The notes below the pieces were generated by a model. The model was given only the letters and a program-made list of their open reading frames with translations. It ran no database searches and had not been told where the DNA came from. DNA of 62,648 nucleotides from a virus. A program made the translations under genes and the position numbers. Shown piece by piece: positions 1-60,450 of the stretch (position 1 is the stretch's first letter; every line of letters begins with the position of its first letter). The stretch is from IMG/VR virus record IMGVR_UViG_3300008988_000001, one strand, 5' to 3'.

Positions 1-99
1 GCGCTTCAAGCTGAACTTTCCGGGATAGAGGCGGCAGAAAAGGAAATCAATCAGCTGCAGGCCCAGCGGGGAAAGCTGGTCTCGAAAGTTGCCCGCTGG
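1..99. repeat. Terminal direct repeat, identical to 62550..62648 (assembly overlap of a circular or terminally redundant genome)
   Basis: Base-by-base comparison of the first 99 nt and the last 99 nt of the window shows identity. Confidence 0.95.
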
Positions 100-755: not shown

Positions 756-1280
756 ATGTGGGACTCGTTTGCAAAGTTAGGCCGTATCAGAAAGGCCCTG
801 GAATATAGAGGCTTAGATCCCGAGAAACTTGATATCGGAGATTTGTTCAGGGAGTTGGCAAAGCGCGTTCCCGATAAGGAATTGAATACTTTTTCATGGT
901 TCTTCACGCATCTGGAACCACCTGGATGCCAGATGTCCCACTGCAAAAGTTACGGCGCATCACCTTCTTTTTGTAATTGTGGGGCTGGTGAAATTCCCGG
1001 TCGATGCAAAATCAATAAAGAGTATTTGCGCAGGAGAAAAGAGAAAGCGGTTAAGGCGGCGGACGAACTTCTGGTGGCATTGAAAGATTATCGCAAAGGC
1101 GAGGATGCTTTGCCGCTCATAAACGCATCGCTCGGCTCATGTCGATTTTACGAAATGGTTCTAAAAATTAACTCAAAATTCGCATTTCTGAAAAAGTGGA
1201 ATTACAGCCTTAAAGAAGACACCTGGAAGGAGATAAAAAAACGAGTCATCGACTATAAAACAAAGAAGGAGGTTTTATGA
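756..1280 (+). CDS. Hypothetical protein, Cys-rich centre
   Basis: 174-aa ORF with an AAAGGAGG RBS just upstream of the ATG. Contains a CQMSHC...CNCG...C cluster. No family recognised. Confidence 0.55.
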   Translation: MWDSFAKLGRIRKALEYRGLDPEKLDIGDLFRELAKRVPDKELNTFSWFFTHLEPPGCQMSHCKSYGASPSFCNCGAGEIPGRCKINKEYLRRRKEKAVKAADELLVALKDYRKGEDALPLINASLGSCRFYEMVLKINSKFAFLKKWNYSLKEDTWKEIKKRVIDYKTKKEVL

Positions 1281-1870
1281 AAATCGAAGAATCAACATTT
1301 AAAGAAATTGGACAATTAGTAACCGATGCTTTACTGACGCACCAAGGACCGATCAACCTTGCCTTTAAAAAGAACGGCGAGGACGATCTTAAGATAGGCC
1401 TAAAGGCATTGATCAAGCCCGGGCCGGGGGACGGTGATTTCAAAATCAAGGTCGACATTGACTACATCATTGAAAAGGCAACCGATTCCTTTACCCGATC
1501 AGTAAGCCAAAGACAGGCCACTCTCAACCTGGACGGTCCAACAAAGCCGTGTCCGCTCTTACCTGAAGGCGACGAGGTTTATACGAACGTCTGCGCGAAA
1601 TGCAAAGAGCGGCAGTCAATCATCCTCGTTGATGGGAAATCTCTTCCTGTCTGGAAAAGCCACAGGGATCCGATAGAGGCACCAAAGGAAGGTTATCAGA
1701 TGGTTCAGGTCATGCCCTGCAAATCATGGGCGGATGATGATTATCAGATATTCTGTGCTGACATGCTGAGAAAAGCGATCATCCACGAAACGGAAATGAA
1801 GAACCGGGCGGAAAAAGAAGAAACCAAACCGGAAGAAAAGAAAAAACACAGAATGAAGAAGGCGGCGTAA
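1277..1870 (+). CDS. Hypothetical protein with a Lys/Glu-rich C-terminus
   Basis: 197-aa ORF. ATGA overlap with the upstream ORF and TAATG overlap with the downstream methyltransferase. Confidence 0.55.
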   Translation: MKIEESTFKEIGQLVTDALLTHQGPINLAFKKNGEDDLKIGLKALIKPGPGDGDFKIKVDIDYIIEKATDSFTRSVSQRQATLNLDGPTKPCPLLPEGDEVYTNVCAKCKERQSIILVDGKSLPVWKSHRDPIEAPKEGYQMVQVMPCKSWADDDYQIFCADMLRKAIIHETEMKNRAEKEETKPEEKKKHRMKKAA

Positions 1871-3570
1871 TGACACAAAAATCATTCCAAGCTGCTGACC
1901 TCTTTTGCGGCGCCGGCGGAACATCATCGGGGATTTATCGGGCATGCAAGCAGCTGGGCGTTAATGTTGATTTGGTTGCTGTGAATCATTGGAATATTGC
2001 AATCCAGACACATGAAGCAAATCACCCGGAAGCACGTCATATTTGCGCGACGCTGGAAAGCATTGATCCGCGCGAAGCCGTACCCGCCGGTTATCTGGAT
2101 ATTCTTGTTGCTTCTCCGGAGTGCACTCATCATTCAGTGGCCAGAGGGGGAAAGCCGGTAAACGATCAGTTACGCGCCTCAGCCTGGCACATTCTCCGAT
2201 GGGTTGAGTTATTAAGAATCGACAACATTCTGATTGAAAACGTTCGAGAGTTTCGTGATTGGGGGCCAACTGATCAAAAAGGCCGGCCGATTAAAAAACG
2301 CAAAGGTGAAATCTATCAGGCATTTTTAACGGCGCTGCGCTCCCTTAATTACAATGTTGAGGATAGGATTTTGAACGCGGCCGATTATGGAGATCCCACG
2401 TCGCGCAATCGGCTCTTTGTTCAGGCACGTCGGGGCCGGAAAAAGATTATTTGGCCGAAAGCCTCGCACACGATGAGCGACACCTCCGCATTATTTGGTG
2501 ATGAATTAAAGCCATACAGAACCGCACGGGAAGTTATTGACTGGGGCCTGCCTGGAGAATCCATCTTCAAAAGAAAAAAGCCTCTTGCCTCTGCGACGAT
2601 GGCGCGGATTGCTGCAGGACTCCGCAAATATGGCGGTAAGAATGCAGAGCCATTTCTGGTTATGATGTATGGCAGCAATGATGCCCGATCAGTGGATAGA
2701 CCTATGCCCACCGTAACGGCGAACGGGAATCATATCGGACTTTGCAAACCTTTTCTGACGCATATCACTCATACCGGCGGGGACCGGGCCCACGATATTG
2801 ACAAGCCGATGCCGACAATTACCTGTGCGCATCGCGGAGAAATGGCACTTGTCGAGCCTTTTATTGTCCCCTTTTTTGGGGAACGTAAAGGACAAAATCC
2901 GCGAACTCATTCTATTGACGATCCAATACCAACGGTTACAGGACATGGGGCAGGTGCACTTATTGAACCGTTTATTGTCAGATACCACGGAAATCATAAA
3001 GGTCATAACGATTCAGAGCGACGGACCCATGATGTTAATCAGCCGTTGCCGACGCTGGATACGTCAAACCGCTATGCGCTGTGTGAACCATTCATCGCCA
3101 TCATGAAGGGCCAGAGCAAAACACGGGATCTTGACAGCCCGCTGCCGACGATCACGACGAACCCGCATCTCTATTTTTGTGAGCCATTTTTAACGATCAT
3201 CAAAGGAAAAAGCACTGCGTCGGATATCGATAAACCCGTCCCGGCAATTACGACAAAGCAATATGTAGCCCTCTGCCAGCCGTTCATTACTAAATATTAT
3301 GGGTGTGGGGAAGGTGCGGCAAGTGTTGATGCTCCCCTGGACACGATCACCACGCGGGACCGTTTCGGACTGGTTGAGCCATGCACGGACGGCGAGGCGG
3401 TTTATGATATCCGATTCAGGATGTTGCAGCCACATGAGCTTTCTGCCGCGATGTCATTCGATAAAAACTATCAATTCGCCGGGAATAAAACAGACAAGGT
3501 AAAGCAAATCGGTAACGCCGTTCCGGTCCGGACGGCAACGGCTTTATGCAAGGCAATGTTAAGCAATTAA
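1870..3570 (+). CDS. DNA (cytosine-5)-methyltransferase with an expanded variable region
   Basis: Motif I FCGAGG, motif IV SPECTHHS (PC), motif VI ENV, motif VIII SRNRLFVQARR, motif X QIGNAVP. Seven PxPT(I/V)T...EPF(I/L) modules lie between motifs VIII and IX. Confidence 0.9.
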   Translation: MTQKSFQAADLFCGAGGTSSGIYRACKQLGVNVDLVAVNHWNIAIQTHEANHPEARHICATLESIDPREAVPAGYLDILVASPECTHHSVARGGKPVNDQLRASAWHILRWVELLRIDNILIENVREFRDWGPTDQKGRPIKKRKGEIYQAFLTALRSLNYNVEDRILNAADYGDPTSRNRLFVQARRGRKKIIWPKASHTMSDTSALFGDELKPYRTAREVIDWGLPGESIFKRKKPLASATMARIAAGLRKYGGKNAEPFLVMMYGSNDARSVDRPMPTVTANGNHIGLCKPFLTHITHTGGDRAHDIDKPMPTITCAHRGEMALVEPFIVPFFGERKGQNPRTHSIDDPIPTVTGHGAGALIEPFIVRYHGNHKGHNDSERRTHDVNQPLPTLDTSNRYALCEPFIAIMKGQSKTRDLDSPLPTITTNPHLYFCEPFLTIIKGKSTASDIDKPVPAITTKQYVALCQPFITKYYGCGEGAASVDAPLDTITTRDRFGLVEPCTDGEAVYDIRFRMLQPHELSAAMSFDKNYQFAGNKTDKVKQIGNAVPVRTATALCKAMLSN

Positions 3571-6595: not shown

Positions 6596-7276
6596 ATGCC
6601 ATTGCAGAAATCAAAAGGTCAAATGTACCCATGGGTAACTCATACCCATTGTCACCTGGGCGGTGAATGTCCGCATAAATGCGTTTACTGCTATGTCGAT
6701 CATTTCCCGTTTGGCCGGCCAAGGAAATATCAAGGTGAACTGCGCCTGATCGAGAAGGAATTTTCTGTAAATTACGGGTCGGGAAAGACGATTTTTATTG
6801 AGAATTGCAATGATCTATTTGCTTTTGCAGTTTACCCAAATATCATTAACGGAGTTCTTGAGCATTGCTGCATGTGGCCAGAAAACGAATACGTGTTCCA
6901 GACAAAAAACCCTGACCGATATCATGGCACGTATCAGCCATTCCCACCCAAAAGCATAAGGGGCTGCACCATCGAAACGAACAGAGATTACCATAACATA
7001 AGCCGTGCGCCTGGCCAGATGGAGCGTTATTATGCAATGAGGAAAATGTCGGGCCGCAAATTCATCACCATTGAACCAATTATAGACTTTGACGTTGACG
7101 TTCTATCTGCATGGATGGACATTATACGCCCCGAATTTGTCAACATCGGAGCGGACAGCAAGGGTCACAATCTTCCAGAGCCGACACCGGATAAGATTCG
7201 CGGCCTGATTTCCAAGCTGAATGAATACGGCATTGAGATTCGAGAAAAGCACAACCTGGAAAGGATATTGAAATGA
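6596..7276 (+). CDS. Phage Gp37/Gp68 (DUF5131)-like protein with a CX3CX2C radical-SAM-type cluster motif
   Basis: CPHKCVYCY motif near the N-terminus. Downstream blocks IFIENCNDLF, FQTKNP, ITIEPI and NIGADSKG resemble the Gp37/Gp68 family order. Confidence 0.55.
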   Translation: MPLQKSKGQMYPWVTHTHCHLGGECPHKCVYCYVDHFPFGRPRKYQGELRLIEKEFSVNYGSGKTIFIENCNDLFAFAVYPNIINGVLEHCCMWPENEYVFQTKNPDRYHGTYQPFPPKSIRGCTIETNRDYHNISRAPGQMERYYAMRKMSGRKFITIEPIIDFDVDVLSAWMDIIRPEFVNIGADSKGHNLPEPTPDKIRGLISKLNEYGIEIREKHNLERILK

Positions 7277-9320: not shown

Positions 9321-9384
9321 TTAAATGAACTTGACCGCCGCCAAAATCTATGACAGCCATTCCTCACTTGGGGGAGGCATTTGT

Positions 9385-10566
9385 ATGAAAGGTGGAATTT
9401 ATTCATCTGAAAAATGTCCTATATGCGGCGGTAGCTTTAAAGATAATTCAAGAACTGCATTGATCTGTCCTGATCATCCAGGGCAAAGAGCGACACATTT
9501 TATAGTAAAATTTGAAGATGTTTGGAAACGTTTTAAGTCTTATGATATGGCCTCACGGCTCCTTAACGGACTGAGGTTTAAGACTGACGAGGGCACATTC
9601 GACAACAGAGATTATAAAAAAGATAATCCTCTTGGGTTTCAGACTCAAATAGAATCATGGTTAAAAAAGAAGCAGGAAAAAGTTGTACCGAAAAACTTTA
9701 AAAATATCGAAAATTACGCCAGCAAAGCAATTTCATATTACGGCCAGAAGAACATCAAAGAAATAGACTATGCCGAACTTGAGGACTTCATGACCTCATT
9801 GACCGGTCTGTCATCAAAAACAAAATCAAATATCATAAACGCACTTTATAACTTTTGGGGATGGATGGTCAAAAGAAAGGTCATTAACCGTCAGCAGTTC
9901 CCCGATTTTCCCGACCGTTACGATTACGAGCTTGGATATCGGAGGATTGTTTCACGAGAGCAGCAGGCGGCAATTCTGGAAGAAATTAAGCGCCTGACGT
10001 ATCACATCAACCCCAAAATCTGGATAGGCTGTAAATTCCTATCGACGTACATTTCAATCCGCCCTGGGGAGCTCGTGGATCTTCAGGAGGGCAATATCGA
10101 CAAAGATGAAGGATGGCTTGTATTCCCGTTCCCAAAGGAAGATAAATATAAATCAGTGCCGATCACCAATGAGGATCGGGAAATATTGAAGACGTTCCCG
10201 CCGGCAACAAAACCGGATATGCCATTTTTCCGGCATACGAAGTACCATGGCCAGAAAGAAGGCACGCCGTTTGGCCAAAAGGTTTTTTACCGATGGTGGA
10301 AAGAAGCATGTAAGAACTTGGGGATTAATGACGTGGATCTGTACGGTGGGACGAAGCACAGCACGGCCAGGCACTTAGGAAAAACATTCTCTCCCGAGCA
10401 GGTAAAACGAGCCGCCATGATTTCAACAAATAAAGCTTTTGAGCGTTATTTTTCCGTGGAACCGAATGCAATCAGGTCAATTTATGAGCAGGCCCAGGGT
10501 GCAACTGGAATGCAACCGGAAAATAAGCCCCTGGAAAATGGCAAGGTATTAATATTTAAAGAGTAA
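9385..10566 (+). CDS. int: Tyrosine recombinase/integrase with an N-terminal zinc ribbon
   Basis: ISIRPGEL (Arg), KHSTARHLG (HxxR) and FERYFS (Tyr) near the C-terminus. N-terminal CPICGG...CPDH. GGGGGAGG RBS before the ATG at 9385; the ORF is open from 9325. Confidence 0.85.
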   Translation: MKGGIYSSEKCPICGGSFKDNSRTALICPDHPGQRATHFIVKFEDVWKRFKSYDMASRLLNGLRFKTDEGTFDNRDYKKDNPLGFQTQIESWLKKKQEKVVPKNFKNIENYASKAISYYGQKNIKEIDYAELEDFMTSLTGLSSKTKSNIINALYNFWGWMVKRKVINRQQFPDFPDRYDYELGYRRIVSREQQAAILEEIKRLTYHINPKIWIGCKFLSTYISIRPGELVDLQEGNIDKDEGWLVFPFPKEDKYKSVPITNEDREILKTFPPATKPDMPFFRHTKYHGQKEGTPFGQKVFYRWWKEACKNLGINDVDLYGGTKHSTARHLGKTFSPEQVKRAAMISTNKAFERYFSVEPNAIRSIYEQAQGATGMQPENKPLENGKVLIFKE

Positions 10567-12753: not shown

Positions 12754-15700
12754 TCAATCTATTAAAATTGCCCGTTCCTTTTTTGAAGGCCGCTGCATTC
12801 TTTTTGCCTGATTCCTGAGGCTCTCCGAGGTTATGAACGTCTCACCCCTTATGCTTTTGACCTTATCGTTAAATTCCCGGACATCAGCCACGATCTTCCT
12901 GTATTCGTCTTTATCGCGGCCGCCAAGTATCCACGCCCGATATTTTTCATAAATGGCGTTTCTCATGTCTGCAAATTTCGCCTGTTCGCGGTGCCCTTCC
13001 CACGTTCTTTCGGACAAAACAGCTTGATTGGTGGACCTGAACCCCACTGCGCGCGCGGCCGTCTCTCCGGTGCCGGGAGCAAACGGCTTCCCTTTTTCAT
13101 CCCAAACCCTACGGCTATTTCGCGTTGAAACACCCTCTTCTCTTTCCCTCATGGCCCGGAGCGGATTTGCAAACCCTGAAGGAAGTAAATGCTCTGCCGC
13201 GCGCCCTGCATTCCCACGGCTAAGATTCTCCCCGGCTTCTTTTATTTCGGTTGCCACGCCGCCGATAGCGCCGGTCAGATCCATGAAGTTCTTCGGTACG
13301 CCCACCCCAATGGAAAGAGAGCCCGATATATCAATGCCGGCGGCTCCGGTAAGACCATGACGCCCGATCTTTTCAGCATCGGCGCCCAGGTGCTTCCTGA
13401 TTTCATCCCAAACCCACTTCTCCGGATCCCGATCTTCACCAAACAGGGCTTTCAGGATTACCCCGGCAAAACCGAAGATGGCATCTTTAAAGGGCAGCGC
13501 AGCGCCGCCGGCCAGGACCAGTGGAGACAAGAAGGCAAACATGGCCCCTTTGATATTGTGCTTCTTCAGGCCCATATCATAAAGCATCTGAAGGTAGTTG
13601 TGGCCGAACTTCTGATAGACGTAAATCATCTGCCCGAGCTTTGCCGCCGGATTTGCGCCCTGTGCCCACATGGGCATAGTGGACTTCCCATAAACACCGT
13701 GGGCCTTGTCAGTGGCATCCTTTGCCCTTTCAGCCGCTTCGACGTGTCCCAGTCCTGAGCGCCGCGCCAGCCGGTAGGCCGCAAGAACCGTCGTCCCACG
13801 ATTCCATCTTTCGGACTTTCCAAAAAGATACATGGAGCCATCCATCATGGATGACCATATTCGGGAATGAGCCTTAGATATCTCGCCCAGGGCCTCCCGC
13901 GTGTACTGTGCATCATCCCAGCCTTTTTTATGGACCTCATTCATAAATGATGCTTCATCCGGGTTGGAGAGTTTTCTTCCAGCCATCAGAGCCGCATAAT
14001 CTTTTCCGGCAATTCCGAGCTCGCGCAGGATCCCGAACATCGAGCCCTTGCCGCCCAGCGCATATTGATGAATCGCCGCCGGCGCTGTTGTAACAATAGC
14101 GGTCATATTTACCGTCAGGGAGCGGAGGTTAAAGCCGAGAAATTTGAATGTTGCAATAGATTTTGCCAGTCCGATAACCCGGTCTATCGGTTCGGCGTTC
14201 CGCAGCTGTTCTTCGATATAGTTCTGAGCGGTCTGAAATGCCTGCGGGTCTTTCACCGGATCGATACCGCCTATTTGCTTGCCTTCAAACTTCTCCCCGA
14301 GCAACTGCTTCATGGCCAGCCGTGCGACTCTCGCCTTTGAAATCCCCCCGGACAGGCTATTGATGTACTGAAGATGGCGTTGCATAGGATCTTCGATAAA
14401 TCCGCGTACAACTCCATTCCCGCGGTGAATCATGGTTGATCGGAATCCCCGGGCCTTGATTGCGTTCGATACTTCACGGAGAACTTCCTCATTGAATTTG
14501 ACTGTCAAATCATTTCTCAATTCACTTTTCTTGCTCAATTTTTCCAGGGCGGAATCAATCAGTTTCGCCGTGGCCACCGCGTTCACATCCTGATAAATGG
14601 TTTCCGGGATCCGCTCGACTTCTCCAACGTTGTAAATCGTCCATCCTTCCCGTTGCAGTTTGTTGGCCAGGCGGTGAGCGCCCAATTCTGAGCCTCTGTG
14701 CTCCCGGTAGTATTCCCGATTTTCTTTCATGGGTCCGTGTTCTTTATAAGCCTGAACCTTCCAGTTCCCGGATTCGCGCAGTCTCGGAGCGTAAAAGCCT
14801 TTCCACTCTTCCATTTGGGCAAGGGCGCCCTTGAGAGTTTGTTTCAGTTCGTTAAGATCGGGCGTCTCGCCCCTGAAATTGGCTTCCTCGATGAGCTCCT
14901 CGATCATGGTCCGTAACTGCTGGGTCTGTAAATCAAGGGCCTTATCGTAGGACTGCCGGTATAATTTCCATACTCTGATAGTATCCTCAGTTGAATTCTT
15001 CCGGATATGATCCTCAAAATCTTTTAATTGCTGATCGAGGGTCCGGGAAGTGTTCCGCTTCCATGACGTATCGCCTTCATCTATGATCTCCTGCAGGCGT
15101 TGATATTCCGGGGATACTTTGCCGGCCATCCGGTCCGCAAGAGACAAACCCTTATTCTTGAGCGCTTTGGCCGCCTCAACAACGGTGTCCTCGGGCGCGT
15201 CAATATCGTCGGCTGCATTTAGGTCATTAAAGGTTTCGTGATAAATCTCGTTACGATCACGTATGAACAGTTTAACGACATTCCTGATCTGCGGGTGACT
15301 AAACCATTCAGGCGACTTTAACATCGCTTCCCACCAGGTCATCTGTTTTGGATGGAGTTTGTTATTGATGGTCTGGATAAGCGCGGCCGTCTCGTCCTTC
15401 AGATACAGATTAAGGACTTTCGGGTCTTTGCTTACGGGCGGGTCTTGCTGGGCGCGGATGGAATACTGCTCACCCCGTTCAAGTTTTGCTTTCAACATTT
15501 TGGCTATTTTGCTTGTTGTCGCCGGATCATCTATTATTTCTTTATTTTCGGCATATCCTTCTTTAAATTGAAGCGTCCGGTCTGTTATGCCTTCCTTTTG
15601 CGCGAACCATTTTATCCACTGAGCCGGAGAGTTATGCGCTCCGTCAAAGTCATAGATAACGCCATCTATCCGCGCTCCGTAATGTTCAGCGTTATTAAGA

Positions 15701-18700
15701 TTGCTTGCCATACGCACCAGTTCACCGCGGCCCGTAGATTCGATAATAGCCCTGGCACACACAAGGCAACCACCATCAAAAGGACCAGCCCATATCGGTT
15801 TATGATTTAAGAGGATATCCCAAAATTTATCGTCCCTATAAACATTTCTAATGGCGTTGCCTATTTCGTCATGTTTGACTGAATATGCTTCGTCAGTCAG
15901 TGCGCTTTTATCTGTTGTTCTATTATAAACAGAACCACTTTTAATGTCTCTCGTAATTCCCTTGACCGTCCTAATTCCGAAAGCGTTCACCAGCTTATCA
16001 ATGAAGTCCTGAATCTTCGCAACGGTCCGGCCCAGTAAGCCCTTCGGTTCTTTGGTTAGTGCATCAGCAATGAAGTTTGCGCGATCTTCGGCGCCGCCGA
16101 TATCCTTTTTGTTGGCGGTTTTAAATTTTCCTTCTTCGGCAAGGTTCTTGATATGGCGCTGTAATAAATTGATTTCATTCTGGTTTAAAACGCCTATGTC
16201 TTCCATGAGATGGACAGACTCATGATGGAGTGCCCAGCGGTCGGCTGCACCGCGCACAAGTTTTATAACACCCGTGCCCAATTCTTTGTTATAGCCATAT
16301 CCGCCAGAGACAACTTCATCCTGTCCGAGATTTTTTCTCCCGTATCCGATGCTTAAATTCATTTCATTGATTGATATGTGATTGACCTCGGCAATGGTTA
16401 CTATCCTTCCATTATTTAAACCAATCATGAACCCGCCGGGTACTTCTCGGACTTCCTGTCCCTTGAAAGCATTCTGAACATCAGCCAGAGTGGGCATGGG
16501 AATGGTTTCGACCTGTTCTGCAGCCGCGTATTTCTCCTTGACAAGATCATAATCAAAGAGTATCTTTTTACCAGAGCCGAGTTTGGAGCCTCTCACTGTG
16601 GGCAATTGGAGCCCACTTGTCACGCTCCAAGCACGGCTTTTCCCTTTATTCATATACCGAAGCAAGCCGTCATTGATCCACTTTACGAATATACCATCAG
16701 AATCCTTCCCGTAGACACTCGCGATATCATTCACGACATTGCGCCCTAACTGCTTCGATAATCTAATCGCAGCGACGATGGTTTTACCGTCCTGCTGAAG
16801 TTCTGTCATAACAACAAGACTATCCGCTTCTGTGGCAGAATCAAATATCATAATGGGATCGTCAATATGCGCCGGTAACTGTTTCAATGTTTCAATTGAA
16901 ATACTATGTTTCCCTGATGCAACCTTTTCCACCGTTCCCTGTGTGATAACCAAGGGGAGTTGTTCGGCTCCAAGCCTTTCGAGGACTTCCGGAGTCCGGC
17001 CAATCGTAATTGGTTCCAAGCGGTTCGTGATTTTCCCGGCCGCAAAGTCGTCAAGTTGTTCGGAAAAAGACGCATTTTCCCGGATGGCATCCCTTTGTTT
17101 GACCGAATACATCTCCACGCCTTTGTCGGTTTCGCGTGTCTGTAATATTCCGATAAAATCATCAAAAGCCTTGTTGATTGCAATCCGTTCTTTCCCCTCT
17201 GGGTATGGCCGGGCCACAAAACCGTCAATCATCGGCAGAAATATTCCGCCGTGGGCATGGTAAACAAGAAAGTCACTCTGTCCGCCCTTCTCGGCTATTT
17301 TATCTTCAACATAGGCCGCAAACGCCCGCGCCGCCATTTCGTGTGGTTCGCTCCAATAATCTCCGGTTCTAGCCTGGTCCATTTTCTTTGCTTCGATGGC
17401 GTAATTGGTAGAGACTTTCTTTGTCTTTTCTGTCTTGTTGTTTGCATCATTCAGCATTTTCAACCTTGCCGAATAAGTATTCATCGCACCTCGAAGTTGG
17501 TCAAGACTCCCTGTTCTTTCAGAGTTAAACCCCTGCCGATTGCGCACGGACTTCATTATCGCGTTAATATTTTCAAGGGTGTCGTTTGTCCAGCGGTGAG
17601 CCGTTAGCCTGCCGTGGGTTGCCCTGCTCATTCCCGCCGGTCTTTGCATGGGCGTGTTTGCGCCTTCTGGATTATTGTACCTGAAACTCGTTTCCAAATC
17701 ACCGCCTTCAATAAGGATATTCGACAACCGGTCAAATTCGGAAAGCTGTTCCGCTGTTGCAGGCTTCCCGTATTTTGCCCATTTTTTATTATACTTTACC
17801 CAATCGGAATGATCCTCTTCGAGGCTCCGGCGGATTCCCTTTAATTCATTGGAAAGGTTCTCTCTGGCAGCTGATAAGAATCTGTCCGCAACTTTCGTAT
17901 CCTCAACGTACTGTTCAGCCTTTTTATACATTCCTTCCATTAATGATTTGTAGGACGCCTGCAGCTCAGGACGCAGCTTAGAGCGGATGCTTTCGCCGTG
18001 GCTTTGGAATGTATGGCTATCGGCTTGGCGTGGATATGTCAGATCACCGCGTTTATTTGCTGTTTTGTTTGACGTCGCCTTTGTGTCAATTCGGGCAAGA
18101 TAATGATCGAAGGAATGAAACCACTCGTGGGCCAGTGATCCCGCGCCCTTCATTTTTGTGAGGTTGATAACCCCATAGTCCGGTTCGTAATGCGCCTTTG
18201 CGCCCGAAAGCCCCTGTCCTCTGGCCCCGAAGGCAATAGCCATATCACCATTAAGCATCAATGCTTTTGGCGATACATTCAAAGCATCGGCAAGGTCAAG
18301 CAATCCATCGTAGGCATGATTCAAAACCTGTTGCCGTTCTTCCTGATTGTTCCAGTTGCCAAATTCGATAGCCCTGGGCGCGAATGTTTCATTGAATATT
18401 TCCGGCGTAGCGTCTGTCGTGCGTCGTTCAGCGCCTGTCCGTTTTGCTATTTCAGGAACAGGAAGTATCTCTTCCCCAAAGGTTGTTTTGATGTTCAGGA
18501 TTTCCTCGGCGTGTTCGGCCATGTGCTTCATGCCGTCCTCGCGGGAGGGGAATTCCTGATTGACGACCTTGAATAATTTCCGTTCGCCAACTTTTTTATA
18601 GATTGCCCACTGGCCTTTATTCTCCCTGCTTTCAAATACCCTATGGGACTGAGCCACGGCAAAAAGAGGGATTGCTTTTTCTGCCTCTTCCTGCGTCGAA

Positions 18701-21700
18701 AATACCTGCCCGGAACTTCTGGTGATCATCCCAGATTTGGCAGCTTTTGCGTTGGCAATCGTCCAGCCTGTACCGTCCAGTTTTTCAAGGGCGATAAACT
18801 GTTTTTTCCATGCAGGTTGGCCGTCGTCCTCTTTGATTATTTTTCCGCCTTTGGTATATCCGCGCTCAGCCGTATCTTTGCGTGCGCCGCCGATCTTTTC
18901 GCCGAAGTCTTCAAGCTTTCCTTCTTCTTTCGCCTGAAGCTCAGGTTCATTGGCTTCCGGTTCCCTGAACATCTCTTCATTCTTCGGCGTAACCTGCTCG
19001 GAAAGCTTCGGGCTTATCTGTGCTTCGGGATTGGTTAAAGAGAAAGTCTCGGCTTCAGATGCGCCGGGGATTTCGGATTGTTTTGATTTTACTTCTTCGG
19101 AAGAAAGTTTTGCGGGCTGTTCAGCTGCGGGTTGTTTTTCTGTTTTTGCCTGTGCGGATACATTGGCAAAGAAATATTCTACTTCTTGGGCATTGGCTTC
19201 AATTTGTTCGGGAGTATACCCTTCGCCCTCAAGCGCTCCAGCAAGCCCGGCTTCAATATCTGCACGACTCTTTTCACTTGTTCCGGCGTTAAATCCGGCT
19301 GCTTCGAGTTCTGTAAGTTGTCCTTCGATCCACTCATTTTCTGCCCTCGCTATGTCACGGTTGATTAAGGTTTCTGCTTTATCAGGAGCGTAAATCTTTC
19401 TGCCCTGGCCGGTCTTCAGAAGCTCAATAACGTGATCCCCGGACTCAATCGGCCACCCGTCTGCCTGTAATATACTCGCTAACTGGTCAGCCGTCAAGCC
19501 GGACTTCGATTTTAAAACACGCCTTGCGTCCACGTCCTGGCGGAGCAATCGGGCGTTGTAATCACCCATGGTTATTTTGAGGCCACCGAGTTCGCTGATT
19601 TTCGTAACAAGGTTCTGTGCGCCGCGGTCTCGCTTGGCTGGCTTCTGGTCAACCTTGACCATCTTCTCTTTGAGCTTCTTATAATAGATGCTCTTTCCTT
19701 CTGGAGCGTTCGGTTTATAAACTACCTCGTACCCTTCCTTCGTGGGAGTATCTTTCAGGGACTTCTGAATACGTCCAATGTCTTTCCGTCCTGCCTTACG
19801 GATGAAGATTTCGGCGGGTTCGGGTGCATTTTCTGCCGGTTTCGTTTCCGCGGACGCGCTTATGGCGTTTGGCGCGGGTTTTTCGGGCTGTTTAACCGCT
19901 GCCCGCTCGTCAAGAGATTTCTGCCTGTCCCGGTCTGTTAATGCTGCCCAATCTTTGGCCTTATATAAATTCCCGATTCTTGCTTCTTCGTCCCTTAACC
20001 ACCGCCACCTGTCGCCCCTTGTCCCTTTTTCAAGGTGTGGATGAATACCAATTTCATCAGACAGCCTTGACCGCTCTTCGCTGAGAACTTGCATTTTATC
20101 CCGCGCGTCCTCGATGTTTCTGGGAACAAAAGACCCCCCGGATTTCGCTTCATCAGCAATACCTGCTGTCGCGGCTTTGGTTTGTGAGAGAGGCGCGGGG
20201 TGTGGTTCATGTATTTTAATTAAATTGTCTATTTGGTCTGCCAGCTTTTTGGCTTCCGTTGCGCTTCTGTCCAGAGCCTCTTTCGCGGTATTATAGTTTG
20301 GTGATGATGGATCAACGGAAGGGGTTGCCTTGGCGGTTTCGCCAGCGCGTTTACGCAGCCTTGCCGCTATTATTTCGGCAACGTCTTTTCTTTCACCGTC
20401 AATAGCGTCCCTAACTGCCGTTACTACGGAATCTTCATCAATATCCAATAACGTAGAAGAGGCGGCAGCCATCGCCTTTTCCAGCGGAGTCCACTGTGCC
20501 GGCTGCTTTCCTTTTACTAATTTATTTTTTTCGTCTGCAAGAGAATCTATTTTGCTATTTAATGTGGCATTTTCGCCTTCCGACGTTGCTCCAGGTTCAA
20601 CGATCTTTTCAGCCTGTGCTTTGGGTGCCTCGGCAGGTAAAGTCCCGGTAGCGGGCAAGGACTGAATTTCCCCGGCTGGTTTTTTATCGAACAGAACTTT
20701 ACCGCTGGGCGCGATTACTCGTTTAACACTTCCCGCCGATGCAAGGTTCCCATCAGCCAGAAGAACATCACCGTTCATGCTGTTGGGTGAAACGATGTTC
20801 ACCTGTTTTTTTGTCCCATCCAGTAATTCAACCTGCAGCCCTGCGAGCCCTTCATGTTTTCCAGTTAATGCGGATTGTAAGTTATCCTCTGCCGGTTTTG
20901 TGAGTTCTGCCAGCCGCTCAGTATCCTTTTTGTATTTTTCTTGAGCATCCTGATATTCGGGCGTCCAATTCATAGCCGCATTCGTATCAAGATAATGTGA
21001 CTGTAAAGCGACGCTCTGCTTCAGATCCCTTATCTCGGTTTCGGTTTGCAACGACTCATTATCGGCTTCCCCCTCTCCTAATTTTTCAGGTACATCTTCA
21101 TCGATGTTCTTTACCGGAATTATTTTCTTAACCCTTTCCATGTCAGCCCTTACCTGGCTCATGGAATCCGGGCGCGGTTCTGTATCATCCTTTACTACCT
21201 GACTTACCTTCTCTTTCAAATTTTCAACGATAACGCCGTTGAGTCCGTCCTTCAGCGCCGGGTATCGCTCTTTGAACCGATCGACGTCTTCCTCTGTGAA
21301 AACACCGTCCTTTTGCGCGCGCTGGATGATCGTGATCGCATCGGCCGGTGAAAAGGTATGGTCACCGACTTTTCCTGTGCGCATCCCGGCGTCGATCATT
21401 CCGGAGAAAGACGCTCCAACTCTGAGGTTTTTAATATACGTGTCTTCTTCCGGCCTTTTGACCGCGCCGGTAATTCCCTGAGCGCCACCGCCGACGACTG
21501 CGCCGGTCATGCCACCAAGGATAAATGAGTTTATGTATTCATCCCATGCTTCAGCGCTGGTGATGGACTTCCCCTCCACGGCTGCCCGCTCAAGAACGCT
21601 TTGCATTGCTTCGGTGGGTGCTTCCATGACAAACTGCTGTCCGGCAACTTTCGCCATCTTTGAGAGCGTTCCGCCTGCAAACTGCGTTGCGTCCTTACCC

Positions 21701-22533
21701 AGCCAGCCAAGCCTTTTCGCCAAATACCATTCAGGCACAATATCAAGAAGGCCTGCGGGAATTGCCCCGGCGAACGCCCTCAGTGGATCGACTTTGCCGT
21801 TTTCCTGCAGCTGATCACCGGCGATAGAACCGGCTTCCATACCGATTGAAGCGCCGGCCGCCCCTGTTATGGCTCCGCCCTTGATTCCTTTTTCAATGAC
21901 CTGCTTGCCGATCATTTCGGCCACGTCCTTTGACGCACCGGCGGCGATAGCTTTTTCTATGGCCCCTTTAGCGGCTGCCTCTACTGCTTTTTTGCCGATA
22001 ACCGCCCCGGCGCCACCGCTGGCCAGAGAAAGAAGCATATTAGGAATATTCGTGGAAACGCCAAAGGCAAGATATTTTGCAAGATCGGACCCGCTTTCAA
22101 TATCAGTAAATGAGGCTACCTGCGGTTTCGGTGATACGGCCTCGACGTCGGCCAGGCCCTCCGCTCCCCATTTCTTTAAAACATCGGATTCGACGGCTTC
22201 CCCTGCCAACGCGCCCAACCCGTAACCCATGCCACGGACTTGATGAACGCCAGCCTTTAATCCTTTGGGGATCTCGCCCAAAATAGAATCGTCTTTCGGA
22301 GCAACTGCAGAAGTCCCGCTGATCAATTTATCCATGAACGAAGGCGGTTGACGGCGCTTTATGTCTTCCTGAACATGCTGGTCGATTCCCGAGTCCTTTT
22401 TCCAGGTGTCATAATCAGGATATTTTTCAGCATATCCGCCGCGTGTAAAAACATCCTTCGCAACGTCATCAAGAGGCGCATCACCGTAGTAGTCTGCATG
22501 TTTTTTCTGATATCCGAGAATGTCGAAAGCCAT
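12754..22533 (-). CDS. Giant (3,259 aa) multidomain virion protein, polyvalent/ejected-protein class. Two HExxH zincin-like modules and a PLxRFG-like C-terminal region.
   Basis: Single uninterrupted ORF. Gly/Ala-rich hydrophobic N-terminal region. HEWFH at 18115..18129 (aa 1469-1473) with EPHEMAARAFAAYVEDK downstream. HESVH at 16210..16224 (aa 2104-2108). C-terminal hydrophobic segments and ANPLRAM at 13150..13164. Confidence 0.9.
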   Translation of the reverse strand: MAFDILGYQKKHADYYGDAPLDDVAKDVFTRGGYAEKYPDYDTWKKDSGIDQHVQEDIKRRQPPSFMDKLISGTSAVAPKDDSILGEIPKGLKAGVHQVRGMGYGLGALAGEAVESDVLKKWGAEGLADVEAVSPKPQVASFTDIESGSDLAKYLAFGVSTNIPNMLLSLASGGAGAVIGKKAVEAAAKGAIEKAIAAGASKDVAEMIGKQVIEKGIKGGAITGAAGASIGMEAGSIAGDQLQENGKVDPLRAFAGAIPAGLLDIVPEWYLAKRLGWLGKDATQFAGGTLSKMAKVAGQQFVMEAPTEAMQSVLERAAVEGKSITSAEAWDEYINSFILGGMTGAVVGGGAQGITGAVKRPEEDTYIKNLRVGASFSGMIDAGMRTGKVGDHTFSPADAITIIQRAQKDGVFTEEDVDRFKERYPALKDGLNGVIVENLKEKVSQVVKDDTEPRPDSMSQVRADMERVKKIIPVKNIDEDVPEKLGEGEADNESLQTETEIRDLKQSVALQSHYLDTNAAMNWTPEYQDAQEKYKKDTERLAELTKPAEDNLQSALTGKHEGLAGLQVELLDGTKKQVNIVSPNSMNGDVLLADGNLASAGSVKRVIAPSGKVLFDKKPAGEIQSLPATGTLPAEAPKAQAEKIVEPGATSEGENATLNSKIDSLADEKNKLVKGKQPAQWTPLEKAMAAASSTLLDIDEDSVVTAVRDAIDGERKDVAEIIAARLRKRAGETAKATPSVDPSSPNYNTAKEALDRSATEAKKLADQIDNLIKIHEPHPAPLSQTKAATAGIADEAKSGGSFVPRNIEDARDKMQVLSEERSRLSDEIGIHPHLEKGTRGDRWRWLRDEEARIGNLYKAKDWAALTDRDRQKSLDERAAVKQPEKPAPNAISASAETKPAENAPEPAEIFIRKAGRKDIGRIQKSLKDTPTKEGYEVVYKPNAPEGKSIYYKKLKEKMVKVDQKPAKRDRGAQNLVTKISELGGLKITMGDYNARLLRQDVDARRVLKSKSGLTADQLASILQADGWPIESGDHVIELLKTGQGRKIYAPDKAETLINRDIARAENEWIEGQLTELEAAGFNAGTSEKSRADIEAGLAGALEGEGYTPEQIEANAQEVEYFFANVSAQAKTEKQPAAEQPAKLSSEEVKSKQSEIPGASEAETFSLTNPEAQISPKLSEQVTPKNEEMFREPEANEPELQAKEEGKLEDFGEKIGGARKDTAERGYTKGGKIIKEDDGQPAWKKQFIALEKLDGTGWTIANAKAAKSGMITRSSGQVFSTQEEAEKAIPLFAVAQSHRVFESRENKGQWAIYKKVGERKLFKVVNQEFPSREDGMKHMAEHAEEILNIKTTFGEEILPVPEIAKRTGAERRTTDATPEIFNETFAPRAIEFGNWNNQEERQQVLNHAYDGLLDLADALNVSPKALMLNGDMAIAFGARGQGLSGAKAHYEPDYGVINLTKMKGAGSLAHEWFHSFDHYLARIDTKATSNKTANKRGDLTYPRQADSHTFQSHGESIRSKLRPELQASYKSLMEGMYKKAEQYVEDTKVADRFLSAARENLSNELKGIRRSLEEDHSDWVKYNKKWAKYGKPATAEQLSEFDRLSNILIEGGDLETSFRYNNPEGANTPMQRPAGMSRATHGRLTAHRWTNDTLENINAIMKSVRNRQGFNSERTGSLDQLRGAMNTYSARLKMLNDANNKTEKTKKVSTNYAIEAKKMDQARTGDYWSEPHEMAARAFAAYVEDKIAEKGGQSDFLVYHAHGGIFLPMIDGFVARPYPEGKERIAINKAFDDFIGILQTRETDKGVEMYSVKQRDAIRENASFSEQLDDFAAGKITNRLEPITIGRTPEVLERLGAEQLPLVITQGTVEKVASGKHSISIETLKQLPAHIDDPIMIFDSATEADSLVVMTELQQDGKTIVAAIRLSKQLGRNVVNDIASVYGKDSDGIFVKWINDGLLRYMNKGKSRAWSVTSGLQLPTVRGSKLGSGKKILFDYDLVKEKYAAAEQVETIPMPTLADVQNAFKGQEVREVPGGFMIGLNNGRIVTIAEVNHISINEMNLSIGYGRKNLGQDEVVSGGYGYNKELGTGVIKLVRGAADRWALHHESVHLMEDIGVLNQNEINLLQRHIKNLAEEGKFKTANKKDIGGAEDRANFIADALTKEPKGLLGRTVAKIQDFIDKLVNAFGIRTVKGITRDIKSGSVYNRTTDKSALTDEAYSVKHDEIGNAIRNVYRDDKFWDILLNHKPIWAGPFDGGCLVCARAIIESTGRGELVRMASNLNNAEHYGARIDGVIYDFDGAHNSPAQWIKWFAQKEGITDRTLQFKEGYAENKEIIDDPATTSKIAKMLKAKLERGEQYSIRAQQDPPVSKDPKVLNLYLKDETAALIQTINNKLHPKQMTWWEAMLKSPEWFSHPQIRNVVKLFIRDRNEIYHETFNDLNAADDIDAPEDTVVEAAKALKNKGLSLADRMAGKVSPEYQRLQEIIDEGDTSWKRNTSRTLDQQLKDFEDHIRKNSTEDTIRVWKLYRQSYDKALDLQTQQLRTMIEELIEEANFRGETPDLNELKQTLKGALAQMEEWKGFYAPRLRESGNWKVQAYKEHGPMKENREYYREHRGSELGAHRLANKLQREGWTIYNVGEVERIPETIYQDVNAVATAKLIDSALEKLSKKSELRNDLTVKFNEEVLREVSNAIKARGFRSTMIHRGNGVVRGFIEDPMQRHLQYINSLSGGISKARVARLAMKQLLGEKFEGKQIGGIDPVKDPQAFQTAQNYIEEQLRNAEPIDRVIGLAKSIATFKFLGFNLRSLTVNMTAIVTTAPAAIHQYALGGKGSMFGILRELGIAGKDYAALMAGRKLSNPDEASFMNEVHKKGWDDAQYTREALGEISKAHSRIWSSMMDGSMYLFGKSERWNRGTTVLAAYRLARRSGLGHVEAAERAKDATDKAHGVYGKSTMPMWAQGANPAAKLGQMIYVYQKFGHNYLQMLYDMGLKKHNIKGAMFAFLSPLVLAGGAALPFKDAIFGFAGVILKALFGEDRDPEKWVWDEIRKHLGADAEKIGRHGLTGAAGIDISGSLSIGVGVPKNFMDLTGAIGGVATEIKEAGENLSRGNAGRAAEHLLPSGFANPLRAMREREEGVSTRNSRRVWDEKGKPFAPGTGETAARAVGFRSTNQAVLSERTWEGHREQAKFADMRNAIYEKYRAWILGGRDKDEYRKIVADVREFNDKVKSIRGETFITSESLRNQAKRMQRPSKKERAILID

Positions 22534-59220: not shown

Positions 59221-60450
59221 ATGAAAGTATTACACACAGCAGATCTTCACATTCGTGAAAAGAACATAGAAGAAATTGAAACATGCCTTGGGTTCATGGT
59301 CCAGACGGCAGAAAAACAGACCGTCGACCTGATTGTGATAGCGGGCGACATCTTTGACAGCCGGGATATTAAGCTCGATTCCATATCTGCAAAGCTGGCA
59401 ATAAAAACCGTATCCGCGCTGGCCAAAATAGCCCCGGTTGCAATAGTGATTGGAACTCCATCACACGATGGAACGGCGGCGACGATTCTCAATGACATAT
59501 TTAAAAGTAACGATGATTTTCTAAAGGTTATCGTTGCCGATCATCCGATGCAAATCTATTTTGACGGTGAATGTATAGGCGCCGTTGACGAATTTCCACA
59601 AGACGCACTGGCAGAGGGGTCATATCCTGACGCGATATTATCACTTATCCCCACGCCCACGAAACAATACTATCAAGGTACCGATCAGGAAATCAGCCAG
59701 GCAATGAACGGGTTGTTTATGGGCTTCGGCGCCCAGGCCGCAGAGTATAACTGCCCTCATGTCCTCGTTGGTCACTGGAACGTTTCGGGATCAAAACTCC
59801 CTAACGGGCATATTCGCACCGGCATGGATATTGAAATTTCCACGGACCAAATGATGTTGGCACAGCCTGATCTTGGATGCTTGGGGCATATTCATATCGC
59901 GCAAAAGCTCGGAGACCGGTTTTTCTTTTCAGGCCCGATCTATTCCACAAAAATTGATGAAGTAGGCCCGAATGGTTTTTACATTCACACGCTGGAAGGG
60001 AAAAGGCTCGTTTCGTCGGAGTTTATTCAGACGCCCTGCATGAAGCTTTTCCGTGCAACCTCAGACTATACGAAAGGACCGCTGCCGGATCTTGGAGAAT
60101 ACCCGGCTTATTTATTCACTTCAGAAATCATAATCAGAGAATGCGCCGGGGCGTCTGTTCGAGTTGATCTTACGGTGTGGCAGGATGAGGCCGCATTAAT
60201 CCCGAAAGATGAAATCAAACAGCTTTACCTCGATGCCGGCGCCCTCGATGTTGACGTTCGCCTCAACGCCGTGCCGCGGGAAACGGTCCGGGCGGCGGCT
60301 GTCCTGGAGGCCGAAACCCTCAAAGATGAATTTTCTGAAATGGCAAAGCTCAGGGGCGAGGAAATTGACCCTGAAATACTGCCCATGGTGGAACAGCTAG
60401 AGAATATACCGGCAGAAGAACTTTTAAAGACGATAGCGGAGGCCGCATGA
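59221..60450 (+). CDS. sbcD: SbcD/Mre11-like nuclease (calcineurin-like phosphoesterase)
   Basis: HTADLH, IAGDIFDS, GTPSHDG, VGHWNVSG and LGHIH phosphoesterase motifs in canonical order. AAGGAGG RBS. Confidence 0.85.
   Translation: MKVLHTADLHIREKNIEEIETCLGFMVQTAEKQTVDLIVIAGDIFDSRDIKLDSISAKLAIKTVSALAKIAPVAIVIGTPSHDGTAATILNDIFKSNDDFLKVIVADHPMQIYFDGECIGAVDEFPQDALAEGSYPDAILSLIPTPTKQYYQGTDQEISQAMNGLFMGFGAQAAEYNCPHVLVGHWNVSGSKLPNGHIRTGMDIEISTDQMMLAQPDLGCLGHIHIAQKLGDRFFFSGPIYSTKIDEVGPNGFYIHTLEGKRLVSSEFIQTPCMKLFRATSDYTKGPLPDLGEYPAYLFTSEIIIRECAGASVRVDLTVWQDEAALIPKDEIKQLYLDAGALDVDVRLNAVPRETVRAAAVLEAETLKDEFSEMAKLRGEEIDPEILPMVEQLENIPAEELLKTIAEAA

Follow-up and report, generated by a model that had tools for sequence, protein, structure and literature searches.

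Carrying several target-recognition domains (TRDs) on one polypeptide is an established anti-restriction strategy of the Bacillus temperate phages SPR, phi3T, rho11s and H2, and current reviews treat multispecific C5-cytosine methyltransferases (C5-MTases) as peculiar to temperate phages of Bacillus (PMC12707154). The prophage multispecific methyltransferase M.BceSV targets GGCC, GCNGC, CCGG and GGNCC (PMC3526280), and M_MAGs_10 is a validated monospecific, CATCGATG-specific C5-MTase (PMC11954522). The present analysis concerns a C5-MTase encoded at positions 1870..3570 on the plus strand of a 62,648-nucleotide (nt) viral DNA (IMG/VR record IMGVR_UViG_3300008988_000001, analysed at its full length and hereafter termed the window), in which seven consecutive cassettes of 32–40 amino acids (aa) occupy the TRD position between catalytic motifs VIII and IX. 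Comparison with its relatives suggests that this query enzyme is probably an orphan phage multispecific C5-MTase in which each cassette would serve as a minimal TRD with its own target, giving the phage resistance to several restriction systems.

The gene product (566 aa plus stop, complete coding sequence) is a complete C5-cytosine DNA methyltransferase containing all catalytic motifs in order, identified from the open reading frame (ORF) list together with matches to PF00145 (3e-31, 109.5 bits against a cut-off of 22, aligned over aa 6–192), TIGR00675 (102.5 bits against a threshold of 100.65) and the PADLOC Type II MTase models (3e-40). Specifically, motif I (FCGAGG) lies at aa 12, motif IV (SPEC) at aa 82–85, motif VI (ENV) at aa 123 and motif VIII (SRNRLF) at aa 178, followed toward the C-terminus by motif IX (RMLQPHE) at aa 517 and motif X (GNAVP, within QIGNAVP) at aa 548. 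Motif IV is a P-E-C variant that supplies the catalytic Cys85 and is near-invariant in homologs. The N-terminal part of the catalytic domain (1870..2454, plus strand, aa 1–195) carries motifs I, IV, VI and VIII and is modelled by AlphaFold2 (AF2) with a predicted local distance difference test (pLDDT) score above 90, matching DNMT1, M.HhaI and M.HaeIII in Foldseek. It is followed by the constant part of the small domain (2455..2655, plus strand, aa 196–262; pLDDT 66–91), which ends at the first AEPF junction and around which W195, P196, D224, W225, R235 and other residues are invariant across homologs. The C-terminal part of the catalytic domain (3385..3567, plus strand, aa 506–566; pLDDT 90–98) contributes motifs IX and X, and PDB sequence matches (DNMT1/MET1) fall within it at aa 507–561. 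Foldseek comparison of the AF2 models with DNMT1, M.HhaI and M.HaeIII (E 1e-12 to 1e-18) recovers the two-domain MTase fold. Pfam and PDB matches are limited to aa 6–196 and 507–561, leaving about 300 residues at the TRD position unmatched.

Within this stretch, seven heads of the form (D/N)xP(M/I/L/V)(P/D)(T/A)(I/V/L)(T/D) begin at aa 276, 311, 350, 390, 422, 454 and 487 (nt 2695, 2800, 2917, 3037, 3133, 3229 and 3328), each followed by one (L/F)(C/V/I)(E/K/Q)P(F/C) tail, at aa 291, 327, 364, 404, 436, 468 and 501; an extra, eighth EPF tail, AEPFL, lies at aa 259–263, before the first module. The modules align with one another at a mean pairwise local score of 58.7, against 17.0 ± 0.8 (maximum 20.2) in 300 same-residue shuffles. 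Tandem Repeats Finder detects no tandem DNA array, and DNA identity among the query cassettes is just 45–61%; the repeat is therefore an old one that resides at the protein level. An origin as a DNA-level tandem repeat or through slippage is rejected on the negative Tandem Repeats Finder result.

A first-pass annotation of this DNA had proposed a C5-MTase with seven 32–40-aa modules between motifs VIII and IX. The enzyme class is borne out by PF00145, TIGR00675 and the ordered motifs, and the heads and tails lie exactly where they were listed, while the proposed boundaries, which opened each module at D-x-P, prove to be out of phase. The linker preceding a head co-varies with loop type, retaining 62% identity despite a differing upstream neighbour type (n = 4067), whereas the linker following a tail shows 20% identity among cassettes of the same loop type with a differing downstream neighbour type (n = 4057; random baseline 29.5%). 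Since the preceding linker tracks loop type and the following one does not, the cassette opens immediately after an EPF and extends to the following one, a phase also given by the insertions and deletions that separate the enzyme from its closest homolog, P0001. Measured in this way, EPF-to-EPF, the array spans aa 263–505 (nt 2656–3384).

Each cassette opens with a type-specific pre-segment of 10–18 aa, continues through a conserved (R/H)S(V/I)DxP(L/V)PT(I/V)T(T/A) core into a type-specific loop of about 5–9 variable residues, and closes with a conserved (A/G)L(V/C)EPF(L/I). In the per-position profile, two low-information segments (−18 to −9 and +4 to +8) flank the conserved P-T-(I/V) core. 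The TRDs of M.HhaI and M.HaeIII comprise a recognition Loop 1, a conserved T-L dipeptide and a Loop 2 (PMC2790894). A layout resembling Loop 1, T-L and Loop 2 is found in all seven cassettes, with no significant sequence match to solved TRDs and an internal AF2 pLDDT below 50; the pre-segment may be Loop-1-like, P-T-(I/V/L) the equivalent of the T-L dipeptide, and the loop Loop-2-like.

All seven cassettes lie on the plus strand and read, by loop type, A-D-F-C-E-E'-G. Cassette 1 (2656..2754, aa 263–295) is of type A, with loop TANGNHIGLC. It is followed by cassette 2 (2755..2862, aa 296–331; type D, pre-segment THITHTGGDRAH, loop TCAHRGEMALV), cassette 3 (2863..2973, aa 332–368; type F, pre-segment VPFFGERKGQNPRTH, loop TGHGAGALI) and cassette 4 (2974..3093, aa 369–408; type C, pre-segment VRYHGNHKGHNDSERRTH, loop DTSNRYALC). 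Cassette 5 (3094..3189, aa 409–440) is of type E, with pre-segment AIMKGQSKTR and loop TTNPHLYFC, and cassette 6 (3190..3285, aa 441–472) is of an E-like type with loop TTKQYVALC. Identity between these two is 44% in aa and 56% in nt, and a recent duplication of cassette 5 to give cassette 6 is rejected. Cassette 7 (3286..3384, aa 473–505) is the constant, terminal type G (TKYYGCGEGAA / PLDTITTRDRFGLVEPC) and adjoins motif IX.

Relatives of this enzyme are numerous and carry the same kind of array. A tblastn search against phage genomes returns 418 records, of which 284 cover at least 80% of the query, every one of these at 40% identity or less; the hosts include Gordonia, Mycobacterium, Pseudomonas, Streptococcus, Arthrobacter, Vibrio, Burkholderia, Bradyrhizobium and Microcystis, and further hits lie in phages of Myxococcus (Mx4), Roseburia (Jekyll), Bacillus (phi105) and Halobacterium (phiH1). 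In the protein database, at least 7,583 relatives are found at E <=1e-10 (8,000 candidates scored), and the 120 listed range from 381 to 953 aa. Homolog length follows about 38 aa per cassette plus a core of about 307 aa. A hidden Markov model (HMM) built solely from the query's seven modules detects 2–11 modules per protein among the top 120 homologs, 5–6 in the Bradyrhizobium, Microcystis, Roseburia, Myxococcus and Burkholderia phage enzymes, three in phiH1 and two in phi105. When the cassette array alone, stripped of the catalytic domain, is searched against 1.84 billion 50%-identity cluster representatives, 2,597 match at E <=1e-3, 1,515 at 1e-10 and 303 at 1e-30, and the best 150 of these matches hold 4–12 cassettes with a mode of 7–8. 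Because relatives carry 2–12 cassettes overall, with that mode among the best matches, seven is ordinary in the family, and the suggestion that seven modules would be unusually broad fails.

Database annotation names members of this family merely as DNA cytosine methyltransferase, and the nearest named relatives, among the matches listed, come from Smithella and Syntrophus metagenome-assembled genomes. The architecture is undescribed in the literature searched, and the EPF-cassette enzymes apparently constitute a very large and undescribed family. One 841-aa homolog, P0070, is interrupted by an intein (PF14528, PF13403, PF14890). In Streptococcus thermophilus phages of the 5093 group, the C5-MTase genes are annotated as two totally overlapping ORFs in different frames (PMC5601072), and phages of this group are among the tblastn matches of the query MTase.

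Clustering by loop similarity of 613 cassettes, called by regular expression in 120 homologs plus the query, resolves discrete types: A, TA(G/N)G(N/Q)H(I/V)GLC; B, ATAGAIALV; C, DTSNR(Y/F)ALC; D, TC(A/G)HRGEMAL; E, TTNPHLYLC; F, T(S/G)HGAGALV; G, TT(K/R)DRFGLV; and J, T(T/S)VDAWGLI. A protein that has a given type carries about one copy of it, as illustrated by type A (107 copies in 104 proteins), type C (56 in 56) and type D (46 in 46), and pairs of the same type within a protein number 16 against 113.6 ± 10.3 expected from 2,000 label permutations. This non-redundancy holds at clustering thresholds of 0.45–0.75 in the 120-homolog set and is replicated at 0.45–0.65 in an independent low-redundancy set of 50%-identity representatives, in which about 109 loop types are resolved at a threshold of 0.55. 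Type A is nearly always first and E, G or J last, and internal types occur in both orders (B-C 21:12, B-D 7:27, C-D 7:23, C-F 9:6, F-H 6:8 and F-I 5:5), giving 106 distinct cassette architectures in 120 proteins. Moreover, the same types recur in phages of distant hosts: type C as DSSNRYGLV in Roseburia phage Jekyll, type D as (A/K/N)RGE(L/Q)A in Burkholderia, Bradyrhizobium and Microcystis phage enzymes, and the terminal DRFGLV cassette in all of the distant phage enzymes examined.

Comparison with P0001 captures a change of this kind between near-identical enzymes. The whole MTases are about 92–94% identical over their aligned parts, and the repeat region is about 94% identical save for two clean in-frame gaps, one of 37 aa removing cassette 3 (junction EPFIV) and one of 32 aa removing cassette 6 (junction EPFL), both exactly at EPF; the query thus equals P0001 plus cassettes 3 and 6. 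Against P0001, the array shows a nonsynonymous rate (dN) of 0.035 and the core one of 0.062, with ratios to the synonymous rate (dN/dS) of 0.021 and 0.049, respectively, dS being saturated at more than 1.2; against P0003, the array dN/dS is 0.063. The array is under purifying selection that at least matches that on the catalytic core, with dN/dS of 0.02–0.06.

These comparative data favour independent specificity modules over a solenoid or linker, because the cassettes fall into discrete types, are present at about one of each per protein, vary in order, are gained or lost as clean indels and are held under strong purifying selection. In the mechanism proposed, the MTase would belong to the early/replication module of a temperate phage, and its cassettes, joined at L-x-E-P-F, would pair in turn, one at a time, with the single catalytic domain, each cassette type directing methylation of a different short sequence. 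The phage genome would thereby be methylated at several motifs after replication and could resist several host restriction systems at once. Recombination at the conserved junction would add, remove and reorder cassettes over evolutionary time, such that the repertoire may track the restriction repertoire of the hosts. We infer that the cassettes contact DNA, that each gives a separate specificity and that the role of the enzyme is anti-restriction.

Several observations weigh against this multispecific reading. The query module HMM scores the TRDs of SPR, rho11s, H2 and phi3T at 3 bits or less, matching only a 5–8-residue PT(I/L)TT core and this not significantly, and when the terminal cassette together with motifs IX–X is searched against PDB sequences, significant matches cover motifs IX–X only and no solved TRD; as a result, the homology of the internal cassettes to proven TRDs is argued from position, the P-T-(I/V/L)-T core and layout. 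AF2 models with seven and with two cassettes give no support for docking of an internal cassette on the catalytic domain or on DNA. Classical TRDs measure about 40–50 aa, and cassettes of 32–40 aa are at or under that size; nor need all seven be active, given that the classical enzymes contain inactive pseudo-domains. On the methodological side, about 20% of the modules that the HMM detects in the top 120 homologs escape the regular-expression caller (613 versus 769), which also fails on seven distant phage enzymes (3 calls versus 31 by HMM), where the HMM was used instead. Comparing loop identity within a type against core identity is partly circular, since types are defined by similarity clustering, and type non-redundancy could owe something to shared ancestry. 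In addition, the literature searched yielded no methylome or biochemical datum for the query enzyme or any family member.

The structure models bear on a first alternative, namely that the enzyme has a single specificity, or a relaxed one for a short motif, in which the terminal cassette alone reads DNA and the internal cassettes form a β-rich scaffold or spacer aiding binding, processivity or oligomerisation. In the full-length AF2 model, computed from a 71-sequence alignment, the core has a pLDDT above 90 and most of aa ~266–467 falls below 50, so that neither a confident fold for the array nor a compact solenoid is obtained, the absence of a solenoid counting against a scaffold. The two-cassette member P0072 is modelled well overall (pLDDT 84.7, pTM 0.86), with its internal cassette again below 50 and its terminal cassette, at about 72–85, forming predicted strands beside the motif IX strand; likewise, cassette 7 of the query is placed by AF2, with moderate confidence, as strands packed beside the motif IX strand. 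Over its whole chain, the P0072 model reaches a Foldseek target-normalised TM-score of about 0.7 against M.HhaI, and Foldseek returns the generic C5-MTase fold alone for both AF2 models. That moderate modelling confidence is reached by the terminal cassette only, and that this cassette alone aligns with a proven TRD, agrees with the scaffold idea, as do the strongly conserved, strand-like skeleton and the existence of phage C5-MTases with relaxed GpC specificity (PMC8256090). A scaffold, however, does not predict discrete loop types that fail to recur within a protein, a shuffled internal order, a range of 2–12 copies or clean cassette indels between near-identical enzymes, and conservation across phyla extends beyond the skeleton to the type-specific variable segments. 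On balance, this explanation appears unlikely.

A second alternative holds that one or a few cassettes are active and that the others are silent spare TRDs, kept as a reservoir for recombinational switching of specificity. Lange et al. are said to have described, in 1991, inactive pseudo-domains in enzymes of the rho11s/H2 type, which would furnish a precedent, and crossovers at the EPF junction clearly occur over evolutionary time. The selection acting on the array is nonetheless unexpected for silent spares, its dN/dS being below that of the core with synonymous sites saturated; a cassette DNA identity of 45–61% is too low for frequent homologous switching; and no invertase, shufflon or retroelement is seen adjoining the MTase gene. 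These features render a silent reservoir rather improbable, a little below the preceding explanation in standing. Finally, in a third alternative, the array would be a composite reader of a single long target, each cassette recognising one or two of its base pairs in order. Tandem ~34-aa modules with a conserved skeleton and hypervariable loops superficially resemble TALE/PUF arrays. This explanation is highly implausible, since a per-base code needs the type recurrence that is so strongly avoided here (16 pairs observed), the loop types number tens to ~100 instead of about four, A and G/J keep fixed ends whatever the array length, the internal order varies with no compact solenoid in AF2, and C5-MTases act on a flipped cytosine in a short site.

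As for the query enzyme, its genomic setting is that of a phage. An exact 99-bp terminal direct repeat (window 1–99 and 62550–62648) identifies the window as a circular complete genome of about 62.5 kb, and its terminase, head and integrase genes identify it as a temperate tailed phage. Specifically, small and large terminase subunits, a major head protein, a head-closure protein and an integrase are encoded, together with an SF2 helicase, a Holliday-junction resolvase and SbcCD-like proteins. The tyrosine integrase (9325–10566, plus strand; phrog_1, 1e-14) shows the phage to be temperate. With its two ends brought together, an SbcC-like ORF of 946 aa is open across the junction (C-terminal fragment 112–594), and the SbcD-like gene lies at 59221–60450. 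The early region also encodes a weakly DUF5131-like protein (6596–7276, plus strand) that scores under the Pfam threshold, and the structural module contains a giant 3,259-aa ORF (12754–22533, minus strand) matching PHROGs of unknown function only (phrog_30335 at 1.9e-130, phrog_616 and phrog_11358).

Immediately upstream of the MTase gene, a 197-aa Cys-containing ORF (1277..1870, plus strand) ends with a stop codon that overlaps the MTase ATG by 1 nt. The P0001 gene has the same coupled upstream ORF (L012 2218–2811), at 55% identity as against about 92–94% for the MTases. Searches of the 197-aa ORF against Pfam, PHROG and PADLOC return nothing; a role as a partner of the MTase or in its regulation is conceivable, perhaps with co-translation, its membership in the system being uncertain. 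No restriction endonuclease or defence-system partner is present among the MTase neighbours, including by PADLOC, and the MTase is therefore classed as an orphan; one homolog resides in a prophage beside an integrase in a 5.2-Mb genome. Measured against the counts expected under a second-order Markov model, GGNCC (z −5.4), GGWCC (z −3.5) and GATC (z −3.2) are depleted in the genome, and genome-wide counts of GGCC, CCGG, GCGC, GCNGC and CCWGG show no depletion. This pattern may reflect which host restriction sites methylation covers and is compatible with protection, but it is too indirect to be used as support.

At the level of the family, the EPF-cassette enzymes might represent a widespread form of plug-and-play methylation specificity, a generalisation for and against which the chances appear even. 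Tens to ~100 mini-TRD types of 32–40 aa, each with one target, would be swapped between phages at L-x-E-P-F, such that the cassette string would form an evolvable anti-restriction barcode mirroring host restriction, with up to 12 specificities per core in bacterial and haloarchaeal phages. If the family is multispecific, it would amount to a major anti-restriction device with thousands of members across many bacterial phyla and at least one archaeal virus, and with arrays much larger than those known. The small, sharply bounded and naturally recombined cassettes would then offer a ready library for assigning specificity to units of about 35 residues, and the EPF junction could serve for building C5-MTases with chosen combinations of targets. 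To our knowledge, the use of many TRDs in turn by one catalytic domain has never been resolved structurally, and the query/P0001 pair, near-identical yet two cassettes apart, provides a natural test of cassette use by a single catalytic domain.

Among known systems, the monospecific enzymes M.HhaI, M.HaeIII and the Dcm-like MTases share with the query family the two-domain fold, the motif order and, as seen in M_MAGs_10, a D-x-P-x-P-T-I-T-T ... H-P element before motif IX. In M_MAGs_10 the module core is matched once only, by DKPSPTITTQ immediately before motif IX, in keeping with the earlier statement that monospecific C5-MTases carry one or two such elements. Monospecific Type II C5-MTases differ in having one TRD unit as against 2–12 and in their small domain, which is larger and free of repeats. 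M.BssHII / M.(phi)BssHII and M.BceSV, compared here by description rather than by sequence, are further prophage orphan multispecific MTases.

The closest parallel is with the Bacillus temperate-phage enzymes M.SPRI, M.Phi3TI, M.Rho11sI, M.H2I and M.SPBetaI, which the query resembles, in architecture only, as a phage-borne orphan with a single core and tandem short TRDs between motifs VIII and IX. M.SPRI possesses three active TRDs plus pseudo-domains. The TRDs of the SPR, rho11s, H2 and phi3T enzymes contain a PT(I/L)TT-like core with a hydrophobic-E-aromatic element about 8–10 residues on (SPTITTNKGEGLKIAVEY, SPTLTTMGGGHREPKIAVE, EPAFTVNTIDRHGVAIGEY). In hhalign, the query and the SPR family share 19% identity through the core, and in the variable region the terminal cassette alone (EPLDTITTKDRFGLVEP) aligns, pairing with the C-terminal TRD shared by the SPR family (EPAFTVNTIDRHGVAIGEYP). 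The parallel with Bacillus phages drawn in the first-pass annotation thus stands with respect to analogous tandem PT(I/L)TT elements, and does not extend to kinship beyond the C5-MTase fold, as the core identity and the module HMM score indicate. The SPR, phi3T, rho11s and H2 enzymes are 72–81% identical to one another, a lineage to which the query does not belong, and motif IV reads SPEC-THHS in the query family versus SPCQSFS in SPR-family enzymes. Unlike the SPR type, the query family displays a far more regular array with an invariant LxEPF junction and a (R/H)S(V/I)DxP head, and its arrays are larger, reaching 12 cassettes. The regular LxEPF junction, arrays of this size and the great breadth of hosts go beyond what is described in the literature searched: whereas SPR-type enzymes are confined to Bacillus, the query family occurs in phages of Proteobacteria, Actinobacteria, Firmicutes, Cyanobacteria and Myxococcota and in a haloarchaeal virus.

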